DNA from: Candidatus Omnitrophota bacterium
GTDB lineage: Bacteria; Omnitrophota; Gorgyraeia; B26-G9
NCBI GenBank assembly: GCA_016213925.1
Contig: JACQZH010000021.1
Span: 6,295-70,294, forward strand
Reading direction: 5' to 3'
DNA: 64,000 nt
A program made the translations under genes and the position numbers. This document shows positions 3,439-45,041 of this stretch, piece by piece. A model generated the notes under the pieces. That model was not told the DNA's origin, did not search any database, and saw only the letters and a program-made list of their open reading frames with translations. Positions within the stretch are counted from its first letter, which is position 1, and every line of letters starts with the position of its first letter.

Positions 3439-4044
3439 ATGAAAGCAGGGTTTACATTACTTGAATTGTTGATAGGTATTGCGATATTTGCTGTTGTGGC
3501 AGCTTCTGTGTATACTAGCTTCTATCTTGGTGTTAAAACGTGGAGACATGAAGAAACCCGTGATGAAGGACTTCAACAGGCGATGCTTGCTTTGGAAACA
3601 ATGGCGTTACGGCTAAGGTGCGCGTTTGTTAGCGCTGATAATGAAAAAATTAAATTTAAAGGCAGCAACGAACAGATTGATTTCTTCACGGTTAATGCTG
3701 AAGGTGATATAGAGAATTTGATATTTTTTCTGGAACCCAGGGATAGCGGGCAAGGCTATTCTCTACGGCAGTCTAGTAAAAAATATATATATCTTAATGA
3801 TGAAAATCCTCCGGAAATTGAAGTGATAAACAGTTTTGTAAAGAACTTTAAGGTCAGTTATTTTAATGCTAAAGAACAACTTTGGCTTGAGGATTGGCCT
3901 GAAGAATTAAAGCTGCCGGAGCAGGTTAAGATAGAAGTTGATTTCGAAAAAAATAATTTGGAAAGTTCTTCTCTCCGGCTTGAAAAATATGTAAATATCC
4001 TGGTGACAAATGAGATAATATTGCCTAAATATGAAACGCTGTAA
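3439..4044 (+). CDS. Pseudopilin (GspJ/PilW-like) with prepilin N-terminal methylation motif
   Basis: The N-terminus MKAG|FTLLELLIGIAIFAVV has G at -1, E at +5 and a hydrophobic helix. Confidence 0.55.
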   Translation: MKAGFTLLELLIGIAIFAVVAASVYTSFYLGVKTWRHEETRDEGLQQAMLALETMALRLRCAFVSADNEKIKFKGSNEQIDFFTVNAEGDIENLIFFLEPRDSGQGYSLRQSSKKYIYLNDENPPEIEVINSFVKNFKVSYFNAKEQLWLEDWPEELKLPEQVKIEVDFEKNNLESSSLRLEKYVNILVTNEIILPKYETL

Positions 4045-4873
4045 TAAAGATAATAAAGGAATTATTTTAGTCATTGTTTTATGGGTATTGTTCTTTTTAT
4101 CTGTTACGGCGCTTACATTGGGTATGCAAAACAGATTAAATATCCGTTTGCAGAGCCTTACCAATGAAAAAGCAAGAATGCTGTATTTATCCAGGGAGAG
4201 TGTCAACAGGATTATAATATTACTTGCTAAGGACGATCCTAGTTTTGACGCGTTTAGCGAAGAATGGAGTACCGGTGTTTCTTTGCAAAACGAAGAAGGG
4301 ATAACTTTGTGCGAAGTGAATGATGAGGATAGATGTTTGAATATAAATACTGCGCCGGTTGAATTAATAGAAAGAATCAAGTTGATTTTTCCGGGGCTTG
4401 GGGAAGAAGAGATTAAGCTTATTGCTAATCTGCGGCCGTTTAATGTGAAGAAAGAGTTATTGGATTTAGCTCAAATAGACAGAGAGATTTTTTACGGAAA
4501 TCCTTCTGAGGGAAAAATCGGTATGCAGGATATGATTACTGTGTTTTCCGACGGCAAAATAAATATAAATACCGCGCCTAAAGAAGTTTTAATGATACTG
4601 CCGAATATGAATGAGGGGGTTGTCGATACGATTTTGAGTCATCGCCAAGTAACGCCTTTTAACAGTAATGAAACGCTTTCAGAAGGATTATCTTTATTGG
4701 GTTTGACACCGGAACAGGTAGGTTCGCTGATTAAAATTTGCAAAGTGCAATCTTCGATATTTAGTGTTAAGGTAAACAGCGCTTCCAAGCGGAAACATGT
4801 TTCTAAAGGATTAGAACTGATATTCAAGCGAGTTGAGAATAAATTTAACGTTTTGCTGGCAAAGGAGAATTGA
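4031..4873 (+). CDS. GspK-like minor pseudopilin (HhH-containing)
   Basis: The N-terminus KGIILVIVLWVLFFLS is GspK-like. There are two helix-hairpin-helix-like segments (NINTAPVELIERI and ININTAPKEVLMILP). Confidence 0.5.
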   Translation: MKRCNKDNKGIILVIVLWVLFFLSVTALTLGMQNRLNIRLQSLTNEKARMLYLSRESVNRIIILLAKDDPSFDAFSEEWSTGVSLQNEEGITLCEVNDEDRCLNINTAPVELIERIKLIFPGLGEEEIKLIANLRPFNVKKELLDLAQIDREIFYGNPSEGKIGMQDMITVFSDGKININTAPKEVLMILPNMNEGVVDTILSHRQVTPFNSNETLSEGLSLLGLTPEQVGSLIKICKVQSSIFSVKVNSASKRKHVSKGLELIFKRVENKFNVLLAKEN

Positions 4874-9688: not shown

Positions 9689-9794
9689 AGAGAATAAGTA
9701 TTCAGCCCCGAATGAAGCTGTTATTTTAGGCGGTTTTCCGGGGTCTTGAAGTGTAACTATAGAATTAAGTATTATCACAAAATTCGGGATAAGC

Positions 9795-16468: not shown

Positions 16469-17653
16469 ATGGCGATTGAAGTCATTGTGGAAAAATGTGT
16501 CGGCTGTAAAATGTGCGTACGCGCATGCCCTTTTGTGGCTATTGATATGGTCAATAACGTTGCGGTGATCAATGATAATTGTACTCTCTGCGGTGCTTGT
16601 GTGGAAAGCTGTAAATTTGACGCGATTCTTTTACGTAAACATGAAGAAATTGATACGCGTATTGATGAATATGAAAATATATGGGTTTTTGCCGAACAGA
16701 AAAAAGGGATAATTCAGTCGGTAGTGTATGAGTTATTAGGCGAAGGGAAAAAGCTCGCGCAAAAGAGGAATCAAAAACTTGCCGCTGTACTGCTTGGTGA
16801 GAATATTAAAGCAAAGGCAAAAGAATTGATTGAGCGCGGAGCGGATATTGTTTACCTTGTGGATGATCATAAACTAAAAAATTATCAGGATGAAACATAC
16901 GCGGAGGTTTTAACCAAGCTGGTTTTGAAATATAAGCCGGAAATAGTATTAACTGGAGCAACAACTATCGGGCGATCGCTTATCCCCCGTGTGGCGGTGC
17001 AGTTAAAAACAGGCCTTACCGCTGATTGCACCGGGCTTGATATTGATGAGGAAAAAGGCCTGCTGATGCAGACACGTCCTGCTTTTGGCGGCAATATTAT
17101 GGCAACAATAATTTGCCCGAACCGCAGGCCGCAGATGGCTACTGTGCGCCATAAGGTTATGAAGGAAGCGGAAAAAGATTCCAAGCATAAGGGGGAAGTT
17201 ATAGAAGTTAATCCGGCTGATTTTTCCTTGAAAGCCAAAGCTAAACTTCTTGAGGTTATTTCCGAGTTGGAAGAAACGGTAAATTTAACGGAAGCTGATA
17301 TTATTGTTTCCGGAGGGCGCGGTATAGGCTCTGCGGAAAATTTCAAATTATTAGAAGAATTCGCGAAAACTATCGGAGCTGCTGTCGGCGCTTCAAGAGC
17401 GGCAGTTGACAGCGGATATATGCCGTATTCTCATCAAGTTGGGCAGACCGGTAAAACAGTATGCCCGAAAATATATTTTGCCTGCGGAATTTCAGGGCAA
17501 ATCCAGCATCTGGTCGGCATGCAGTCTTCGGATATTATTGTCGCGATAAACAAAGACCCTGACGCACCGATATTTAAGGTTGCTACCTACGGAATTGTCG
17601 CGGATGTATTTGAAATCATTCCCGAACTAACAAAAAAATTCAAAAAGAAATAA
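16469..17653 (+). CDS. etfA: Electron transfer flavoprotein alpha subunit with N-terminal 2x[4Fe-4S] ferredoxin domain
   Basis: The N-terminus has CVGCKMCVRACP and CTLCGACVESC. The C-terminus matches EtfA FAD-binding (IVSGGRGIGSAENF). Confidence 0.8.
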   Translation: MAIEVIVEKCVGCKMCVRACPFVAIDMVNNVAVINDNCTLCGACVESCKFDAILLRKHEEIDTRIDEYENIWVFAEQKKGIIQSVVYELLGEGKKLAQKRNQKLAAVLLGENIKAKAKELIERGADIVYLVDDHKLKNYQDETYAEVLTKLVLKYKPEIVLTGATTIGRSLIPRVAVQLKTGLTADCTGLDIDEEKGLLMQTRPAFGGNIMATIICPNRRPQMATVRHKVMKEAEKDSKHKGEVIEVNPADFSLKAKAKLLEVISELEETVNLTEADIIVSGGRGIGSAENFKLLEEFAKTIGAAVGASRAAVDSGYMPYSHQVGQTGKTVCPKIYFACGISGQIQHLVGMQSSDIIVAINKDPDAPIFKVATYGIVADVFEIIPELTKKFKKK

Positions 17654-17747
17654 GAGTTGTTGTTCTTATCCATCCGGGAAGTTTTTCTTTAGCTTAAGTT
17701 AATAACCAATGAAAGTTATTGTATTTTTAATTTTGAGTGTTTATAAA

Positions 17748-18032
17748 CCCAGATTTTGCAACACGAAAAATCTGCCCGTAGGGGCGATAGTCTACCTGTC
17801 TGCCAACAGGCAGGAATCCGTGTAGGATTTAGACTTGCCAGCGGCCTTGCCGCTAGGCAGGCTATCGAGGTATCCCGAATTTCGCCTGTCTGCTGCCAGG
17901 CAGGCTTGCACCTTTTAATGTTGCGTTGCATTAGAGTAACTCGTTATAATGAATTAGGATAGAAATAAAACAGGTACTTATGTGCAAAATTTGGGATAAT
18001 TCTTGTTTTCTATCGCAATTTTTGGGATAATG
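17748..18032. repeat. Structured intergenic repeat, family A, long copy
   Basis: It shares GGGGCGATAGTCTACCT...CTATCGAGGTATCC(C)GAATTTCGC...TTGCACCTTTTAATGYTGCGTTGCATTAGAGYAACTCGTTATA...GTGCAAAATTYGGGATAA with 26746-26962. Two extra hairpin-forming internal segments are present. The ORFs called inside it are probably spurious. Confidence 0.6.
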
Positions 18033-18068
18033 ATAAAAAATATCAAATATCGAAAAAGAAGGGAAAAT

Positions 18069-18290
18069 ATGAGCCATAAATTTTTTACAGTTATTTTAAT
18101 ATTTATTATGTTATTTTCAGATATGTTGACTAAAAAAGCTTACGCTTATTTAGATCCGGGTACCGGAAGTTATGTTTTTCAGGTAATTATAGCGTTTTTT
18201 GTGGGGGCTTTGTACATTATTAAACTGTTCTGGGCTAGGATCGCGTGTTTTATTAAAAGCTTATTCTTGAAAAAGAAAAAAAAGGAATAA
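18069..18290 (+). CDS. Small membrane protein with YLDPGTGSY motif
   Basis: 73 aa from the ATG at 18069 (RBS AAGGG) with two hydrophobic helices. It lies upstream of a sulfatase-like membrane protein. Confidence 0.35.
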   Translation: MSHKFFTVILIFIMLFSDMLTKKAYAYLDPGTGSYVFQVIIAFFVGALYIIKLFWARIACFIKSLFLKKKKKE

Positions 18291-18398
18291 ATCGGAAATT
18301 TATATAAATGTTCCAGGTTCTTTTCGCGACCCCAGCGGATTTGCTTTTAATAATTCCGTAAAAACAGAAGATTTCCTTTTAATTCCCCGAGAGAAATT

Positions 18399-20045
18399 AT
18401 GCTAATAGACAAAAAATTAAAACTTTATATTTTTGCCATATGTTTTTCGCTGCCGGCTGCTTTATTTATTAAATTTCTCGGTGAAAACCGGTATCCTTTG
18501 CTGACAGTTGAGACGGCGCTGCTTTTTTTTATTCTAGCAATTTTTAGCTTGGTTGTTGTAAGTATTAGTTCGTTTTCCCGGAATACGGCTCTTTTTATTA
18601 TCGGAACGGTTATTTTTGCATACTTCTATGAGATCACGCCTTTCTTGGAGAAGTTTATTTGTTTTTTTGAGCAATGGACAGTAAGAACTATTACCGGAAT
18701 TATTATTGTACTGGTTATATCCGCTTTTTCCCGCAGGTTGAAGTTATCAGACTGGATTTATTTTGGGATAGCTGCTTTTTTGACTCTTTCCGCTACAACT
18801 ATTGAAGCATACTTAAAAATTACTCGTGACAATAAAGTACGCTATGAAAAAAATAATCTTGTTCACAATAAAGGTTTAAAACCGGTATTGTTTATAATAT
18901 TTGATGAACATATGTCTATTGAAGGGATTCCGGAAAATATATCCGGAGCAGGTATTCTTAAACAGGAAATGGCTGAATTTTATGAGCGGTTTAATTTTTT
19001 GTATTTCCCGCGTGCTTACAGCCATTTTTTTGAATCAAGTTTGAGTATCCCTAACGCTTTGAATTTTACCGCTAACCCTGCAATAAGGTATTTGGAGAAA
19101 AGCGGCTTAAGGACAAAACGCTTATTAATGAATAGGGCGTTTGATTTTTTAAAAAATAGGGGGTATGTGTTCAGGATTTATCAATCCGATTACATTGATT
19201 TTTTTGATCGCAGTAATGAAAAAATAGAATACTGTTTTCAGTACTATAGCGGGATAGAGGAGATTCATAAACAGGATTTTAAGATTTTAGATAAGTCGTT
19301 GTTATTAATGGGGCATTTCTTATCGGCTATAAAAACCGGAGAAAAGTCTGTAGCTACTGTTGGTTTTCTTGTTTCATTAATTGTGGGAGACAGGATAAAT
19401 GATATCCCGATAATAGGCGCTCCGTATGACCGTCTGGGGCCCATCAGAACTATACCGGCAATTGAACAGCTTAAAAAAGACACGAACCATTTAAAAAGCG
19501 GTACGGTTTATTTTGCGCATTTATTGACGCCCCATCATCCTTTTGTGTATGATGAGCTGAATAATCTTAAAAAAGATCCGAGGGATTGGTTTGGCCCGAA
19601 TAGGTGGTTCAATATGTATATATATAAAAGGGATTTGGCCTATGAAGAATCATATGAAAGTTATTGTAAACAGTTGCGTGGTATGTATAATTGGCTTAAT
19701 GAGTGGTTTAATCAGCTTAGTGAGCGTAAAGAGTTCAATGACCTGATTATAATCGTGCTCGGGGACCATGGTTCGCGTATAACAGAAGAAGACCCGGATA
19801 ACGCGTCAGTCCTTAAAAATCCAAAGTGGGACAGTATTGCCAAAGACTCTTTTTCGGTATTATTTGCAGTAAAAGGATCCCAATTTGAAAAAGGAAGAGT
19901 AGATATTGCTAAACCTTTAGAACGTTTGCTGTTTGAATGTTTTTTTTATCCTCAAAAATTGAAAGTTGAATCAAGTGATGAAAACTATTTAACTTTAAAT
20001 TTATTAAATAACAAGCTGCTAAAAGTAAAATATGATAACTGGTGA
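18399..20045 (+). CDS. Membrane-anchored alkaline-phosphatase-superfamily (sulfatase/LtaS/EptA-like) protein
   Basis: About five N-terminal TM helices, then a soluble domain with PVLFIIFDEH and IIIVLGDHGS motifs typical of sulfatase-fold transferases. Confidence 0.45.
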   Translation: MLIDKKLKLYIFAICFSLPAALFIKFLGENRYPLLTVETALLFFILAIFSLVVVSISSFSRNTALFIIGTVIFAYFYEITPFLEKFICFFEQWTVRTITGIIIVLVISAFSRRLKLSDWIYFGIAAFLTLSATTIEAYLKITRDNKVRYEKNNLVHNKGLKPVLFIIFDEHMSIEGIPENISGAGILKQEMAEFYERFNFLYFPRAYSHFFESSLSIPNALNFTANPAIRYLEKSGLRTKRLLMNRAFDFLKNRGYVFRIYQSDYIDFFDRSNEKIEYCFQYYSGIEEIHKQDFKILDKSLLLMGHFLSAIKTGEKSVATVGFLVSLIVGDRINDIPIIGAPYDRLGPIRTIPAIEQLKKDTNHLKSGTVYFAHLLTPHHPFVYDELNNLKKDPRDWFGPNRWFNMYIYKRDLAYEESYESYCKQLRGMYNWLNEWFNQLSERKEFNDLIIIVLGDHGSRITEEDPDNASVLKNPKWDSIAKDSFSVLFAVKGSQFEKGRVDIAKPLERLLFECFFYPQKLKVESSDENYLTLNLLNNKLLKVKYDNW

Positions 20046-22734: not shown

Positions 22735-25700
22735 ATGTATTTTAAAAAGTTAGAACTCTACGGATTTAAATCTTTTGTAGATAAGACAACGCTTATTTTT
22801 GAACCAGGCGTTACTGCCATTGTCGGGCCTAACGGTACAGGCAAAAGCAATATTTCAGACGCGATAAAATGGGTGCTTGGCGAACAAAGCGCGAAATCAA
22901 TGCGCGGTTCAAAAATGGAGGACGTGATTTTTAACGGTACTGAAGCACGGCCTCCGGTGAATATGGCGGAAGTTTCGCTTATCCTTTCCAATGAAGAAAA
23001 ACGTTTAGCGATTGATTATGATGAAGTAACAATTACCCGCAGGCTTTACCGTTCCGGTGAAAGCGAATATCTTTTGAATAAAACCTTGGTGAGGCTTAAA
23101 GATATTCAGGAACTTCTTATGGGTACGGGAATAGGAACGGAGTCATATTCTCTCTTAGAACAAGGCCGCATTGACGCGATTTTAAGTTCAAAGCCCGAAG
23201 AACGCAGGGTTGTTTTTGAAGAAGCAAGCGGGATCACCCGTTTTAAAAAGAAAAAAGCGGAAGCGCTTAGAAGGCTGGAAGCTACAGAAGAAAATTTACT
23301 GCGCGTTAATGATATAATTACCGAAGTTAACCGCCAATTAGGATCGATCCAGCGCCAGGTAAATAAAGCCAGGCGTTATCAGGAACATTATGAGCAGCTT
23401 AAAATCCTCGATACGCAATATACCTACCGCGAATATAATGTCGTAAAAACAGAAAAAGAAAAATTTGAAGAGTGTGAAAATGCTTTTCGCAATGAATTGA
23501 ATTCCCTGGAGTCAGAACTTGCCGGATTGGCTCAAGCGTTTGACGAAATAAAAAGCGCTCTTTCTAAGGTTGAAGGGGATTATAGCCAGCTTAATGCCAA
23601 GGTTTTAAATGCCAGTACTCAAATCGAAAAAAATACAGACCGGATTCATTTGAATAATGAACGCATAGAGGAATTTGGCCAGCGCGCGGAAAATTTGACC
23701 GCGGATATTGATAATTCTAATGCTAAAATCAAAGAACTGGAAGAGCAATTTGCGCAGTTAAAAATCCGCTTGAATTCATTCCTTGAAGAAAAAAATAATA
23801 AGGTCCACAATTTAAATCTTAAACAAGCGAGTATTTGCGAGATTGAAAAGCTGATTAAGCAAATACATGAATCGATTGAATCAACCCGGCTGACGGCGGT
23901 AAAGCTTCTTTCCGAGCACGCGCAGATTAAAAATGAACTGGCAAAACTTTCCGCTAATATTCATAACGCGCATTCACGCCTGCTTCGGTTGCATCAGGAA
24001 AAAGAAAAGACGGAAAATGAGCTTTCGGCAATTAATGCCAAGATAGAAGAAAAAATGTCGCTTCTGGATGAGCTTAAGGGCAGGATAGATACGGAGGAAC
24101 TGCAGGTTAGTCAATTACGTTCTGATTATGATGCTTTAAATCAGGAGATCCGCAACCTGGAATCAGAGTATCAAAAAAGCAAGCAGTCTTTGATAGCCGG
24201 CCAGTCACAGCTTGAAGTGCTTGAAAAATTGATTAAAACATACGAAGGTTTTTCAAGTAACGTGAAAAATTTTATGCTTAAAAAAGAAACTCATCCGCAT
24301 CTTTTCGAGGGAGTTTATGATGTTCTTGTAAATCTGATTGATGTTACCCCAGGATTTGAAATGTGCGTAGAAAATGCGCTGGGGGAATATTTGCAGGCAG
24401 TTGTCGTTGATAATAAACAAACCGCGTATAAGCTGACAAATTTTTTAAAAGAGGAGCAGATAGGGCGGATAAGATTTATCGCGCTAGATTCTATTCCTTT
24501 GGGCCAAGAAACTATCATGCCTCAAATTGCAGAGAGAAGAATCACGGATGTTATTAAGCCGCAATTTGGTTATGAAAAGCTTATAAATTATCTTTTACGG
24601 GATACTTTTATTATCGGGGAAAAAAATCAAAACACGGAGAAAACAATTCCTGCGCAAGAAAATACCGGCTGTGAAAGTTTAACGCAATCCCTTAGCCAGG
24701 TAAAAGAAGGTAGAATGTTTTCTTATACGATAGCAAATGCCGAATCAGTGGAAGTTATTGGAGATTTTAATAATTGGGTAAGCAGCCTTAAAAGCAGGAT
24801 GGAACGGGCGCAGGCGGGAAATTGGCAAAAATTTATAGCTCTTAACCCGGGGGTTTACAGGTATAAGTTTATCGTAGATGGAAGATGGGTGCTTGATCCG
24901 GCTAATCCGCGTTCGCAGATAGACGATACAGGGAACGTGAATTCAGTAATTGAAGTGCTTGAATATCCGGTTCAGGCCAAGCCTCAAAGCATGATTTCCG
25001 ATTCTCAGGGGGATGCGGATTTCTCAGGCAGATTAATATCTCAAGATGGTCAAATCGATACATTGACTGAAGTTATCAGCAGCCCTGTCAAAGAGCATGG
25101 CGCCGGGTTGATATTGCAGAAAACCCAGATGAAGATGCTTCAGGAAGAATGCGTGTGTTTAAAAGAAGCGATTAAGTACTATGAAGCTAAGGAGCAGGAA
25201 AAACGGCAGCAGCTTGTCGGGATGGAACGTGAATTGACTCAACTTAATGATATTTTGCATAAAGAGAAAATCGTATTTGCAAATAAGGATTCAGAGCGTT
25301 CAAATATTGAAGCGGCAAAGAAGAAACTTGATGATGAAATAGCTATACTGAACCTGGAAATAGATGAAACAACGCTTGACGAGCAGGAACTGATGGCAAA
25401 AGAAATCGAAAAGAAGAAACGGCTTGAAGAAATAGATGAGCTGACAAGAGTCAATGAAAAGAAAATGGCCCAAGGCCAGGAGCTGATAGCTATAAAGACT
25501 CAAGAACGTGAAGAGCTGCTTGTTGTTATCGCCGAAATGAAGACGGAATTTTCTCTTTTAAATGAACAGGAAGCTGCCCTGAACACTAATTTTTCCATGC
25601 TCGATCAAAGCATTGAAAGTCAGCGGGCTAACGCGAAAGAATATTTAAGGCAGAAAGAAGATTTATTAAAGCGCAGTGAAGAGCTTTCTATTCAAAAAGA

Positions 25701-26745
25701 AGAGCTAAAACAGAAAACAACGGTTCTCGAAACTGAAAAACAGCAGATGGAGGAGGCATTACAGGGAATTTCCTTGCAGCGCGGTAAATTACTTGCTGAA
25801 TTTGAGGATGTCCAGAATCAGGTAAAAATAAAAGAAAACAGGATTAATGCTATAAAAAATAACATGCGCGATGTTGATATTAAGAAGGTAGAACTTAATT
25901 TTAAAATAGAATCACTGGTTAATTCGCTTAAACAAGCGTATAAGATTGATTTGCTTACGCTTACCTTGGAGCCTTCTGAAGGGGTTGACTGGAATAGCCA
26001 AAAACTGCAGATCGAGGAATTGAAAATAAAAGTTGAGCGGCTTGGCGCGGTTAATCTTGCCGCGGTCGAAGAAGAGGAAGAACTTAAGGAGAGAGCGGAA
26101 TTTCTTAACAGTCAAAAAGATGATTTAATATCGGCAAAGCAATCCCTGATGCAGGCAATCCAAAAAATAAACCGCACGACAAAAGAGTTATTCCTTGAAA
26201 CGTTTGAAAAGTCAAAAGCGACTTTTAAAGAATATTTTAAACTGCTTTTCGGAGGAGGAGATGCGCAGCTGCATCTTATCGAAGATAAGGATATCTTGGA
26301 AAGCGGTATCGATATTATAGTACGGCCTCCGGGAAAACGCCTGCAGAGTATTACATTGCTTTCAGGAGGGGAAAAAACACTTACGGCTATCGCGCTATTA
26401 TTCGCGATTTATAAAATAAAGCCTACGCCGTTCTGCGTGTTAGATGAAATGGATGCGCCGCTTGATGAATCGAATATTGACCGTTTTACCCGGGTACTGC
26501 AGGAGTTTCTCAAGGATTCGCAGTTTATCATTATTACTCATAATAAAAAGACAATCGGTATGGCTGACGTGATGTATGGAGTAACAATGGAAGAGGCGGG
26601 TATTTCCAAAATCGTATCAGTGAAATTCAGCGATTATAAAGAAAATTCCCAGGATAATTCCCAAGGTCTGGGTTACGAGCAAACGCCTCAAAAAGGTTTT
26701 GCAGAGACTGAAGTAACAATGCCGGAGAAGGTACTGGCGCATTGA
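22735..26745 (+). CDS. smc: Chromosome segregation protein SMC with ~150-aa CBM48-like insertion in hinge
   Basis: The N-terminal Walker A is GPNGTGKSN and the C-terminal signature is LSGGEKTLTAIALLFAI with Walker B CVLDEMDAPLD, joined by long coiled coils. 1336 aa versus ~1180 typical. Confidence 0.85.
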   Translation: MYFKKLELYGFKSFVDKTTLIFEPGVTAIVGPNGTGKSNISDAIKWVLGEQSAKSMRGSKMEDVIFNGTEARPPVNMAEVSLILSNEEKRLAIDYDEVTITRRLYRSGESEYLLNKTLVRLKDIQELLMGTGIGTESYSLLEQGRIDAILSSKPEERRVVFEEASGITRFKKKKAEALRRLEATEENLLRVNDIITEVNRQLGSIQRQVNKARRYQEHYEQLKILDTQYTYREYNVVKTEKEKFEECENAFRNELNSLESELAGLAQAFDEIKSALSKVEGDYSQLNAKVLNASTQIEKNTDRIHLNNERIEEFGQRAENLTADIDNSNAKIKELEEQFAQLKIRLNSFLEEKNNKVHNLNLKQASICEIEKLIKQIHESIESTRLTAVKLLSEHAQIKNELAKLSANIHNAHSRLLRLHQEKEKTENELSAINAKIEEKMSLLDELKGRIDTEELQVSQLRSDYDALNQEIRNLESEYQKSKQSLIAGQSQLEVLEKLIKTYEGFSSNVKNFMLKKETHPHLFEGVYDVLVNLIDVTPGFEMCVENALGEYLQAVVVDNKQTAYKLTNFLKEEQIGRIRFIALDSIPLGQETIMPQIAERRITDVIKPQFGYEKLINYLLRDTFIIGEKNQNTEKTIPAQENTGCESLTQSLSQVKEGRMFSYTIANAESVEVIGDFNNWVSSLKSRMERAQAGNWQKFIALNPGVYRYKFIVDGRWVLDPANPRSQIDDTGNVNSVIEVLEYPVQAKPQSMISDSQGDADFSGRLISQDGQIDTLTEVISSPVKEHGAGLILQKTQMKMLQEECVCLKEAIKYYEAKEQEKRQQLVGMERELTQLNDILHKEKIVFANKDSERSNIEAAKKKLDDEIAILNLEIDETTLDEQELMAKEIEKKKRLEEIDELTRVNEKKMAQGQELIAIKTQEREELLVVIAEMKTEFSLLNEQEAALNTNFSMLDQSIESQRANAKEYLRQKEDLLKRSEELSIQKEELKQKTTVLETEKQQMEEALQGISLQRGKLLAEFEDVQNQVKIKENRINAIKNNMRDVDIKKVELNFKIESLVNSLKQAYKIDLLTLTLEPSEGVDWNSQKLQIEELKIKVERLGAVNLAAVEEEEELKERAEFLNSQKDDLISAKQSLMQAIQKINRTTKELFLETFEKSKATFKEYFKLLFGGGDAQLHLIEDKDILESGIDIIVRPPGKRLQSITLLSGGEKTLTAIALLFAIYKIKPTPFCVLDEMDAPLDESNIDRFTRVLQEFLKDSQFIIITHNKKTIGMADVMYGVTMEEAGISKIVSVKFSDYKENSQDNSQGLGYEQTPQKGFAETEVTMPEKVLAH

Positions 26746-26962
26746 TTGGGATAAACCAAAATTTTGGGATAAAATCTAGTCTCAAATAATCCCAAAATTT
26801 GCCCGATAGGGGCGATAGTCTACCTATCTGCTGACAGGCAGGCTATCGAGGTATCCGAATTTCGCTTGCACCTTTTAATGCTGCGTTGCATTAGAGCAAC
26901 TCGTTATATGAATAAGGATAGAAACAAAACAGATATTCATGTGCAAAATTCGGGATAACCTC
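26746..26962. repeat. Structured intergenic repeat, family A, short copy
   Basis: It has the same core as 17748-18032. It is flanked by a TTTGGGATAA / TTATCCCAAAA inverted pair at the left end and GTGCAAAATTCGGGATAAC at the right end. It sits between the convergent smc and GGDEF genes. Confidence 0.6.
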
Positions 26963-27009
26963 AAAACAGATGTTTTTTTTCGCGAATTATTTCCGAGATA
27001 ATTACCTGG

Positions 27010-28119
27010 TTAAATTAATTCTTTGCTGAACATGCAGACTCTGTTGCGGCCGATATTCTTTGCCGCGTAAAGGGCTTTATCAGCGGCAGAAATAAGGCCT
27101 TCGGCAGTTGAAGAATCTTGCGGGAAGCTTGAGACGCCGATGCTTATTGTCGCGTGTTTTGGCGTGTCCGATTCGGGTGTTTGAAACGGAAAGGCTGCCG
27201 CGAAGCTGCGGATTCTTTCTGCGGAAGAGTAGGCTTTTTCCTTAAAGGTTTCAGGAAGGATAATTACGAATTCTTCTCCTCCGTATCGGGCGACAAGATC
27301 TACCTCCCTGCTTGAATTTTGAAAAATTTCCGCTAATTGCTTCAGGAGTTTATCTCCTGCAGGATGGCCGTATGTATCATTGAATTTTTTGAAAAAATCT
27401 ATGTCAATCATAAGCAGGCTTAACTGCCGGTTAAAGCGGCTTGCACGCTTTATTTCTTCGCGCAGCTGATGCTGAAAATATCCGTAATTCCAGAGATTTG
27501 TCAGGTGGTCAGTGTATGAAAGGATCAGGGTTTTTTCAAATTCCTGCGAATTTTCTATTGCTAATCCGGCCTGGTTTGCGAACATGGTAAGTTTCCAGAT
27601 ATCAGATTCGGTAATCTTATTTTTTGAAAAAAAGTTATCAACAAGCATGATACCGACAACACGGTTTTTTGCCAGCAAAGGCACGGTTACAAAATATTCC
27701 ATATTGAATAATGAGATTACCGGGTCGTTGCTTGAAAGCAATTTCTTGGAATCAGTTCTGCGGTCAAAATCCGCGTATGAGGATATGAGTTGATCCATGG
27801 TTTTTTGTGTGTTTTCAATATATTTCCAGATTTCATGAGCATTTTCTCCGGAATCTGGGCCGATTCCCATTCTCCCTTCAAGCTGGTTTTTCTTTTCGTT
27901 TACAAGAAATAACATGGCGCGGTTAAAACCAAGCCCTTCATTGGCTGTAACGCTGGTAAGGATGATGTATAAGATTTCGTCCAGGCGCAAAGTAGAGCGC
28001 ATGGCAATGCCTATCTCATAGAGCATTAGCAGCTCAGAGTGCTGTTTTTCATCAGGTGTGTGTACTTTATTTTGGTGGAGCATGCTTCTTATTTTTAAAC
28101 ACTTTCCTATTTTTGTCAA
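27010..28119 (-). CDS. GAF-domain diguanylate cyclase (GGDEF)
   Basis: The C-terminus carries RYGGEEFVIILPE (GGEEF active site). The N-terminal ~180 aa are GAF-like. Confidence 0.75.
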   Translation of the reverse strand: MTKIGKCLKIRSMLHQNKVHTPDEKQHSELLMLYEIGIAMRSTLRLDEILYIILTSVTANEGLGFNRAMLFLVNEKKNQLEGRMGIGPDSGENAHEIWKYIENTQKTMDQLISSYADFDRRTDSKKLLSSNDPVISLFNMEYFVTVPLLAKNRVVGIMLVDNFFSKNKITESDIWKLTMFANQAGLAIENSQEFEKTLILSYTDHLTNLWNYGYFQHQLREEIKRASRFNRQLSLLMIDIDFFKKFNDTYGHPAGDKLLKQLAEIFQNSSREVDLVARYGGEEFVIILPETFKEKAYSSAERIRSFAAAFPFQTPESDTPKHATISIGVSSFPQDSSTAEGLISAADKALYAAKNIGRNRVCMFSKELI

Positions 28120-28183: not shown

Positions 28184-28312
28184 ATAATCCCAGATTTTGC
28201 CGGCCTATCGGCAAGCATCTTTTTATGCGAGATATTATTTTATAACTGTTTTTTTCGAACTAAGTTACCATAATTCTTGTTTTCTATTGCAATTTTTGGG
28301 ATAATAAACAAA
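28184..28312. repeat. Family A-related framework sequence without the core, containing the shared promoter module
   Basis: ATAATCCCAGATTTTGCC and ATTCTTGTTTTCTATTGCAATTTTTGGGATAAT match the flanks of copy 1 but lack the ~190-bp core. It lies in the divergent region between the GGDEF gene and the rubrerythrin-like gene. Confidence 0.45.
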
Positions 28313-38829: not shown

Positions 38830-38967
38830 GATCAAACGTAATGGGACAGCTTTTAATCTCTTTGCTGAAAATCCCCGGGTTTTCTCCAGAAAAATTCTCT
38901 TAAAATTTCCAGGGCTAAGTTCTCTTAATCCTCGGGATTATCCGCGCGATTCTTAAAATACTAGTAA

Positions 38968-39202
38968 CAGTTCAGCGTTAGGAAATTTGTTCGATATGCG
39001 GTGCGAACGTAACCGGTTCACTCCGTTCGCTACGGCTGCTCGTCGCAATCGGATAAAATTTTTCCGACTGTCCCCCCATCCCCCACAGGGTGGGCTCAGG
39101 TAAGCACTTCTGGAAAAATTTCATCCTCATAAGCATGCTCCTGTGCGGCCTTATGCTCACTACGTGAACCGATTACGTTCCTTCTGCTAAGAGCTGAACT
39201 AT
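38968..39202. repeat. Palindromic intergenic repeat, family B, copy 1 (MITE-like)
   Basis: About 85-90% identical to 44718-44958. It has terminal inverted repeats CAGTTCAGCG...GCTGAACT. The internal arms are mutually complementary (GAACGTAACCGGTTCAC / GTGAACCGATTACGTTC and GGATAAAATTTTTCC / GGAAAAATTTCATCC). Confidence 0.6.
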
Positions 39203-39293
39203 TACAAATACTACATATCAATAAATGACATGAAACTTCCTGCAGTTTTTATCATCAAAATATAAAGGGCAGTTGAATAAAGAAAGGCACGGT

Positions 39294-44708: not shown

Positions 44709-44717
44709 TATGGTAAT

Positions 44718-44958
44718 AGTTCAGCGTTCAGAAGTTTGAGTTAATAATGATGCGGTACAGACTCAATCGTCGCTCTGCATTCGCAGACGGTGCTCGTCGC
44801 AATCGGATAAAATTTTCCCGACTGCCCCCAGCATCCCCCACAGGGCGGTAGTTCAGGTAAGCACTTCTGGGGAAATTTTATCCTCATAAGCGAGTTTCTG
44901 CGCGCCTTATGCTCACTACGTGAGCCGATCGAGTCTCTTCTGCTAAGAGCTGAACTGT
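44718..44958. repeat. Palindromic intergenic repeat, family B, copy 2
   Basis: See copy 1. It starts 10 bp after the radC stop. Confidence 0.6.
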
Positions 44959-45041
44959 TAAATAATATGCGATAGTTCATCTTATGTGAATGAAAGGTTC
45001 CAAACTCTGAACTGATACAATAAGATCGGGAGGGTAAATAG

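Follow-up and report, generated by a model that had tools for sequence, protein, structure and literature searches.

The DNA analysed here is a 64-kb stretch of a 91.8-kb metagenome-assembled contig from an uncultivated Omnitrophota bacterium (hereafter, the window), in which a non-coding repeat, denoted family A, occupies two intergenic loci. Copy A (17747-18030) lies in the spacer downstream of the ETF-alpha gene etfA (16469-17653), where the sequence-only reading had placed the long copy of the repeat. Copy B (26790-26998) lies between two convergent genes, one encoding an SMC protein (22735-26745) and the other a GAF-GGDEF protein (27010-28119, minus strand), and nearly all of this 264-bp spacer is derived from the family A element. 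The two loci share a common core and represent a real repeat: motifs of 20 and 31 nt from the core each occur exactly twice in the 64 kb, compared to zero occurrences expected from shuffled sequences. Over the 176 positions aligned between the element ends, the identity of the two copies is 85.8%, rising to 93.3% over the 119 positions of the 3' half. The recurrence of the core had been reported at 26746-26962. The repeat holds, but copy B proper spans 26790-26955 (26790-26998 with its tail), and the start of the second copy has to be moved, given that 26745-26786 is not core sequence but consists of two solo right-end motifs, ATTGGGATAA and TTTTGGGATAA, located on the plus strand immediately 3' of the SMC stop codon.

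The SMC protein of the window genome is 100% identical to MBI4845584.1. It contains an AMPK1_CBM/CBM48 domain (glycogen-binding type) at approximately residues 660-745, adjoining the hinge; the same insertion is present in ~18 of the closest Omnitrophota homologues and absent from more distant ones (~1,180-1,200 aa).

On the plus strand, copy A is preceded by TAA (17744-17746), read directly as its putative left target-site duplication, and TAA is also found after both of its right ends. The 250-bp core of this copy (17747-17996, as delimited by the alignment) extends from the left inverted repeat ACCCAGATTTTGC to an inner right inverted repeat GCAAAATTTGGGA, and the two ends are paired in the predicted RNA fold (z = -6.0). 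Within the core, also on the plus strand, are a 47-nt segment with the hairpins AATCCGTGTAGGATT and GCCAGCGGCCTTGCCGCTAGGC (17815-17861), which is shared with a copy from another assembly (contig L002, see below) and absent from copy B; an internal, third end motif TCCCGAATTTCGC (17873-17885), paired with the right inverted repeat in minimum-energy folds; and a 20-nt hairpin CCTGTCTGCTGCCAGGCAGG (17885-17904), which is found in copy A only and repeats the hairpin module located at 17795-17814. The 47-nt segment and the 20-nt hairpin correspond to the two extra hairpin segments that the sequence-only reading had recognized in the long copy, and the leading hairpin described there is present as well. 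The core is followed by TAA, a 28-nt tail TTCTTGTTTTCTATCGCAATTTTTGGGA ending in an outer right inverted repeat, and another TAA (17997-18030, plus strand); the tail is 91% identical to 28270-28312.

Copy B consists of a 166-bp core (26790-26955) with TAA on either side (26787-26958 altogether, plus strand), followed by a degenerate tail module (26959-27001, plus strand) that ends in CCGAGA and then TAA, and aligns with 18000-18030 of copy A. Beyond these two loci, and beyond what had been noticed previously, as are the terminal inverted repeats and the flanking TAA duplications themselves, the window contains a short element, C3, of 114 bp (TCCCAGATTTTGCC ... GCAATTTTTGGGA, 28188-28301), also flanked by TAA on both sides (28185-28304, plus strand). 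C3 shares its ends and tail with copy A, whereas the interior is different. At 28196-28225, a hairpin resembling a terminator (TTTGCCGGCCTATCGGCAAG and then a run of T) is located inside C3, with the promoter-like tail downstream; the neighboring genes are divergent, and a terminator between them has no obvious use. A palindrome upstream of rpmF, TTATCACAAAATTCGGGATAA (9768-9792), possibly consists of two fused end motifs, but its membership in the family is uncertain because it has TTA on one side and TAA on the other.

Family A units, 114 to 281 bp in size, are AT-rich and intergenic and have no coding capacity. The overlapping ORFs called in copy A, 17716-17931 on the minus strand and 17756-17962 on the plus strand, show no conservation between the copies, and for the 68-aa plus-strand ORF, no candidate homologue was found among 5.8 billion proteins. 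Thus, the earlier view that these two opposite-strand ORFs lack protein-like conservation is borne out; both are spurious calls, and 17716-17962 is better annotated as a repeat or mobile element.

Inverted ends and flanking trinucleotides

The terminal inverted repeats of family A are ~13 nt long, with (A/T)CCCAAATTTTGC at the left end and GCAAAATTYGGGA at the right end. When reverse-complemented, the right end agrees with the left end in 12 of 16 positions in copies A and B and in the L002 copy, and in 10 of 16 positions in C3 and at the outer end of copy A. The left end forms a hairpin of its own, AAATTTTGC-AACAG-CAAAATTT, and each locus contains at least five occurrences of the end motif, in either orientation, together with distinct hairpin modules. 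In all four full copies (A, B and those of contigs L002 and L015), sequence similarity begins and stops exactly at the inverted ends, and the flanks are unrelated.

There are five clear cases of matching flanks: A, B and C3 are flanked by TAA on both sides, whereas the L002 copy, as well as a 15-nt mini-element on the same contig (1289-1309, TTA-ACCCAAATTTTGGGA-TTA), are flanked by TTA. The L015 copy, with TTA on the left and a readable TTA next to a degenerate right end, is less certain. The arrangement TTA...TAA, which would merely extend the inverted repeat, is found in none of these copies. Because the flanking trinucleotide differs between copies but matches within each copy, we interpret this short repeat, with moderate confidence, as a probable TWA target-site duplication. 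For any single copy, a 3-nt TAA or TTA repeat in AT-rich DNA is weak evidence; by our estimate, the chance of five concordant flanks, if flanks were always TAA or TTA, is ~3%. The possibility that the 3' half is a separate nested insertion was rejected, given that its left flank is GTA rather than TWA.

Occurrence in other assemblies and in syntenic relatives

One full copy, 84-94% identical to those in the window, was found in an Omnitrophota MAG, on the 3.4-kb contig L002 (JACQXK010000058.1), and one more in L015, a contig detected by a scan of JGI metagenomes for an exact 21-mer. A scan of GTDB for an exact 18-mer, with one genome per species, yielded 14 matches, of which one was the L002 copy and the other 13 were chance matches of only ~20 nt. 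No family A copy was found by a scan of viral contigs or by BLAST against plasmids, and no diverged copies were detected in the window or in 60 kb of relatives using nhmmer (with alignment A2) and blastn. The sample collected comprises four full copies, the short element C3 and a few fragments. The window MAG and the L002 MAG have similarly numbered protein accessions (MBI4845584.1 and MBI4707743.1, respectively), possibly reflecting a single submission, and might not represent independent species. The genes flanking the L002 and L015 copies are unrelated to those in the window.

The end of the L002 contig (3410-3425) consists of 16 nt of another left end. Assemblies break at multi-copy repeats, which would explain a contig ending inside a left end; thus, family A seems to be multi-copy in this MAG and to break its assembly, and such repeats appear to do so in Omnitrophota MAGs. 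Removal of 233 nt from L002 restores a 77-aa ORF, which might be taken to mean that the element disrupts a gene. We rejected this as evidence because the N-terminus of the ORF overlaps a terminator-like hairpin, and the relatives carry an unrelated 83-aa ORF in this place.

The nearest homologues of the window SMC protein are 60-65% identical to it, and three contigs encoding such homologues (L016, L017 and L018; SMC identity of 63-65%) are syntenic with the window. The SMC-GGDEF spacer, 264 bp in the window, is 15 bp in L016, 52 bp in L017 and 21 bp in L018. The spacer between etfA and the next gene, 416 bp in the window (132 bp without the element), is 88 bp in L017 and 138 bp in L018, and is not covered in L016. 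No family A copy or end motif is present in 55 kb of these syntenic relatives. Thus, they lack the element at the window sites, and at 63-65% SMC identity, they are too distant for nucleotide-level alignment of an empty site. The short spacers in these distant relatives indicate, by sequence comparison, a lineage-specific presence of the element rather than a precise empty site, and are not what would be expected of an old syntenic feature.

Between etfA and a gene encoding a 242-aa protein, the window contains a small membrane ORF (18070-18290) and a gene for a 548-aa sulfatase-like protein, both of which are absent from L017 and L018. Because these two genes (18003-20045) are absent from the relatives, copy A borders a 2.4-kb lineage-specific insertion.

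Folding, hairpin modules and the case for a structured RNA

The sequence-only reading had considered either a structured RNA or a MITE-like element, of which the latter is favored by the inverted ends, the TWA repeats, the unrelated flanks and the absence from relatives. Under the former, the copies would be sRNA paralogues, that is, genes for small structured RNAs, or else family A would be a mobile element carrying a functional structured RNA as its payload, such that the 3' 120 nt are functional and the variable hairpins are tolerated expansion segments. We consider this improbable. The folds are indeed far more stable than those of shuffled sequences, with z = -6.0 for copy A as RNA and -6.2 as single-stranded DNA, and z = -4.9 for the plus strand and -6.8 for the minus strand of copy B. 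However, the opposite strand folds equally well or better, and this lack of strand preference is what would be expected of palindromic DNA. The closing stem CGATAG/CTATCG is present in all four copies, and the few one-sided stem changes mostly convert G-C pairs into G-U pairs on the plus strand, whereas another predicted stem, ATGAATA/TATTCAT, is perfect in copy B only and mismatched in the other three copies.

A search of Rfam 15, one of the checks proposed along with the sequence-only reading, gave no match at gathering scores across the entire window, and only chance-level matches at E <= 10 for copies A and B. In an RNAalifold analysis of the four-copy alignment, no compensatory changes were found in 65 pairs on the plus strand or 61 pairs on the minus strand, and the covariation term was a penalty; 93% of the cells were paired, and the covariation score of 0.067 was matched or exceeded by 370 of the 500 shuffles, although with four similar sequences, the power is low, so that this result is an absence of support rather than a disproof. 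The sequence-only reading was to be doubted if only the two window copies existed and compensatory changes were lacking; such changes were indeed not detected, but further copies exist. Promoter and terminator scans flagged no terminator or shared promoter at the copies, and there is no conserved genomic context, with the syntenic relatives lacking the element.

The 3' 120 nt, including an unpaired A-rich stretch, are 91-96% identical in all copies, across three assemblies. The conservation of this unpaired stretch, at the same level as that of the stems, points to young age rather than to selection on structure; the identity in this region fits recent spread, although selection may also be involved.

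Several indels involve whole hairpins located at loops or junctions, and the earlier analysis had regarded the placement of indels at stem-loop boundaries as a sign of structure. The 47-nt gap of copy B is bounded in copy A by the 7-nt direct repeat AGGCAGG (17808-17814 and 17855-17861), and the leading hairpin missing from copy B is bounded by CAAA repeats. Because both indels are flanked by short direct repeats, they fit slippage deletion, a simpler explanation at the DNA level for which selection on RNA structure is not needed. The hairpin modules behave differently. A GC-rich module, CCTGTCTGC-N4-CAGGCAGG, is found at one position in A, B and the L002 copy, with an additional occurrence elsewhere in A alone; the resulting 20-nt hairpins (CCTRTCTGC-N4-CAGGCAGG) map to 17795-17814, 17885-17904 and 26823-26842 in the window, and to 1521-1540 in L002. 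The module was not detected outside family A copies in the window or the relatives. It is missing from the L015 copy, where two related hairpins with CTCGCC/GGCGAG arms occupy different loops. Whole GC-rich hairpins were gained at loop positions, for which simple transposon decay is no explanation. On balance, the interpretation of family A as a structured-RNA gene is not supported.

Family A as a probable MITE and comparable known systems

We conclude, with a probability of about 0.78, that family A belongs to the non-autonomous DNA transposons (MITEs), its host being an uncultivated Omnitrophota bacterium. The elements are shorter than 500 bp and non-coding, have terminal inverted repeats located at the limits of similarity and matching flanks, and occupy several non-homologous sites. 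Transposition would involve a transposase encoded elsewhere, which would bind the inverted ends and either cut out or copy the element; insertion would occur at TAA or TTA in AT-rich spacers, and filling in of a 3-nt staggered cut would produce the TWA duplication. The variation in size could be due partly to deletion between short direct repeats and partly to gain of the small GC-rich hairpin modules. The strong folds of both strands are then accounted for by the inverted ends and nested palindromic modules, and are not evidence of a selected RNA shape.

The 3-nt TWA (TNA) duplication is of the type characteristic of the IS5 and PIF-Harbinger groups, and some IS5 subgroups generate 3-bp TNA repeats. 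As a best guess from the duplication, the mobilizing enzyme would be a DDE transposase of the IS5/PIF-Harbinger type, a hint that an IS5/PIF-like transposase with a TWA preference is, or formerly was, active in Omnitrophota.

The window also contains a second MITE family, with copies at 38964-39205 and 44713-44961. These copies, ~76-88% identical, have inverted ends of ~13-20 nt (GTAAYAGTTCAGC ... GCTGAACTRTTAC) and perfect 8-bp duplications that differ between them (AAATACTA vs ATAATATG). The presence of this second textbook family shows that the genome hosts such elements.

A different kind of mobility, which we regard as quite improbable, would be that of a REP/BIME-like palindrome mosaic or an IS200/IS605-type element, with a Y1 (HUH) transposase moving single-stranded DNA and the hairpins serving as recognition structures. 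The mosaic build of family A, in which the 13-nt end motif recurs in both orientations along with the hairpin modules, would suit such a mechanism, as would the hairpin formed by the left end and the high stability of the single-stranded DNA fold. Y1 transposases, such as those of IS608 and ISDra2, are not known to make a duplication, and insert beside a fixed short target. Family A, however, has true inverted repeats and a duplication that differs from copy to copy but is the same on both sides of any one copy, and no homologue of a Y1 transposase was detected in the window by tblastn. A relative of the L002 locus, L019, encodes a 313-aa Y1_Tnp protein (IS200/RAYT-like; 3729-4670) in the place where L002 carries family A, but no family A motif adjoins this gene.

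We also give little credence to a more elaborate scenario, under which the conserved 3' 120 nt and the always-closed multi-hairpin 5' domain would constitute a functional structured RNA or single-stranded DNA travelling with the element, for example, a guide or regulatory RNA of the transposase, or else a portable terminator-promoter cassette directed at the TAA of -10 boxes, where it would restore the promoter; under this scenario, the small GC-rich hairpins would form a separate, self-propagating layer of mini-palindromes.

Insertion of the MITE could nevertheless affect promoters. Removal of either copy A (17747-18030) or C3 (28188-28304), each with one TAA, rebuilds TATAAT. The rebuilt site of copy A, TTGTAT-N17-TATAAT, has the same layout as the promoter before gene 20156 (TTGCAT-N17-TATAAT) and its counterpart in L017. 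With copy A inserted, the right junction reads TTGTTT-N17-(TGG)GATAAT, and was not flagged by the promoter scan. The right end would supply an extended -10 directed outward, TGGGATAA, with the duplicated TAA completing it, and there are candidate outward -10 elements GGGATAAT at the 18031 and 28305 junctions; the element may thereby replace the promoter that its insertion splits. Two of the three window insertions are located in a TATAAT box, so that, if the prediction is correct, this would be an example of a transposon restoring the very promoter into which it inserts. Because the B, L002 and L015 copies face no gene start, promoter replacement is at most an occasional consequence. The idea that copy A was inserted into the orthologue of the L017 promoter was dropped, given that the true orthologue is intact upstream of gene 20156; a longest-common-substring test of this orthology was not significant either.

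An immobile, locally duplicated regulatory cassette, with the TTTGGGATAA motifs functioning as promoter -10 elements or operator half-sites of a DNA-binding protein, is very unlikely. The motif can indeed be read as an extended -10 (TGGGATAAT), precedes the start codons at 18070 and 28355 by ~40-50 nt, and is enriched in the window (26 observed vs 12.4 expected). However, most of this enrichment is accounted for by the elements themselves, the motif is absent from the 55 kb of syntenic relatives, the genes around copy B are convergent, leaving a promoter nothing to drive, the L002 and L015 copies point into the 3' ends of genes, and local duplication cannot explain copies with matching trinucleotides within unrelated flanks in other assemblies.

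A literature search found no paper on MITEs in Omnitrophota. The two families in the window would be the first pair of MITE families described in this phylum, which is known only from metagenomes. Family A is a new family of an ordinary, well-known kind of element, and the current understanding of MITEs is unchanged by it.

Among the known systems, structured RNAs of Rfam 15 resemble family A in length (170-280 nt), in their stable multi-stem folds and in hairpin regions that vary in length, but family A differs from these in having no match, covariation, strand preference or conserved context. With REP/BIME sequences and REPINs (RAYT), family A shares short palindromes, alternating orientation, intergenic location and a strong single-stranded DNA fold, whereas the inverted ends, the variable duplication, and the lack of a conserved 5' tetranucleotide and of a RAYT gene in the window set it apart. 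We make no claim of a resemblance to the IS982 family in ends starting with AC and in hybrid promoters, as a literature search on the end sequences yielded nothing usable.

The prokaryotic MITEs that have been reviewed include Correia/NEMIS of Neisseria, ERIC, RUP, Chunjie of Geobacter, and QMITE1/2 of Coxiella (PMC10969869). Such elements are shorter than 500 bp, have inverted ends and direct repeats at the flanks, reside at AT-rich intergenic sites, are predicted to give very stable transcript folds, and include truncated variants (PMC10969869). Family A has all these features, along with internal-deletion size variants and solo-end derivatives. Unlike the listed elements, to which it shows no sequence similarity, family A has a 3-nt TWA duplication, rather than TA or 7-9 bp, as well as extra internal end motifs and nested GC-rich hairpin modules. 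Its end sequences are not known to be related to those of mPing or Tourist.

The TWA duplication is a feature of PIF/Harbinger elements, for which insertion prefers AT-rich sequence and of which the bacterial IS5 elements are relatives; the IS5 target used for comparison is given as ANT (PMC4482050). A Pfam scan of 20 window ORFs revealed no IS5-like or PIF-like transposase and no other transposase domain, and no autonomous element with the family A ends was detected. Family A resembles Tourist-type MITEs and PIF/Harbinger in its AT-rich insertion sites and its 5'-TWA-3' duplication, and it is this duplication that forms the link.
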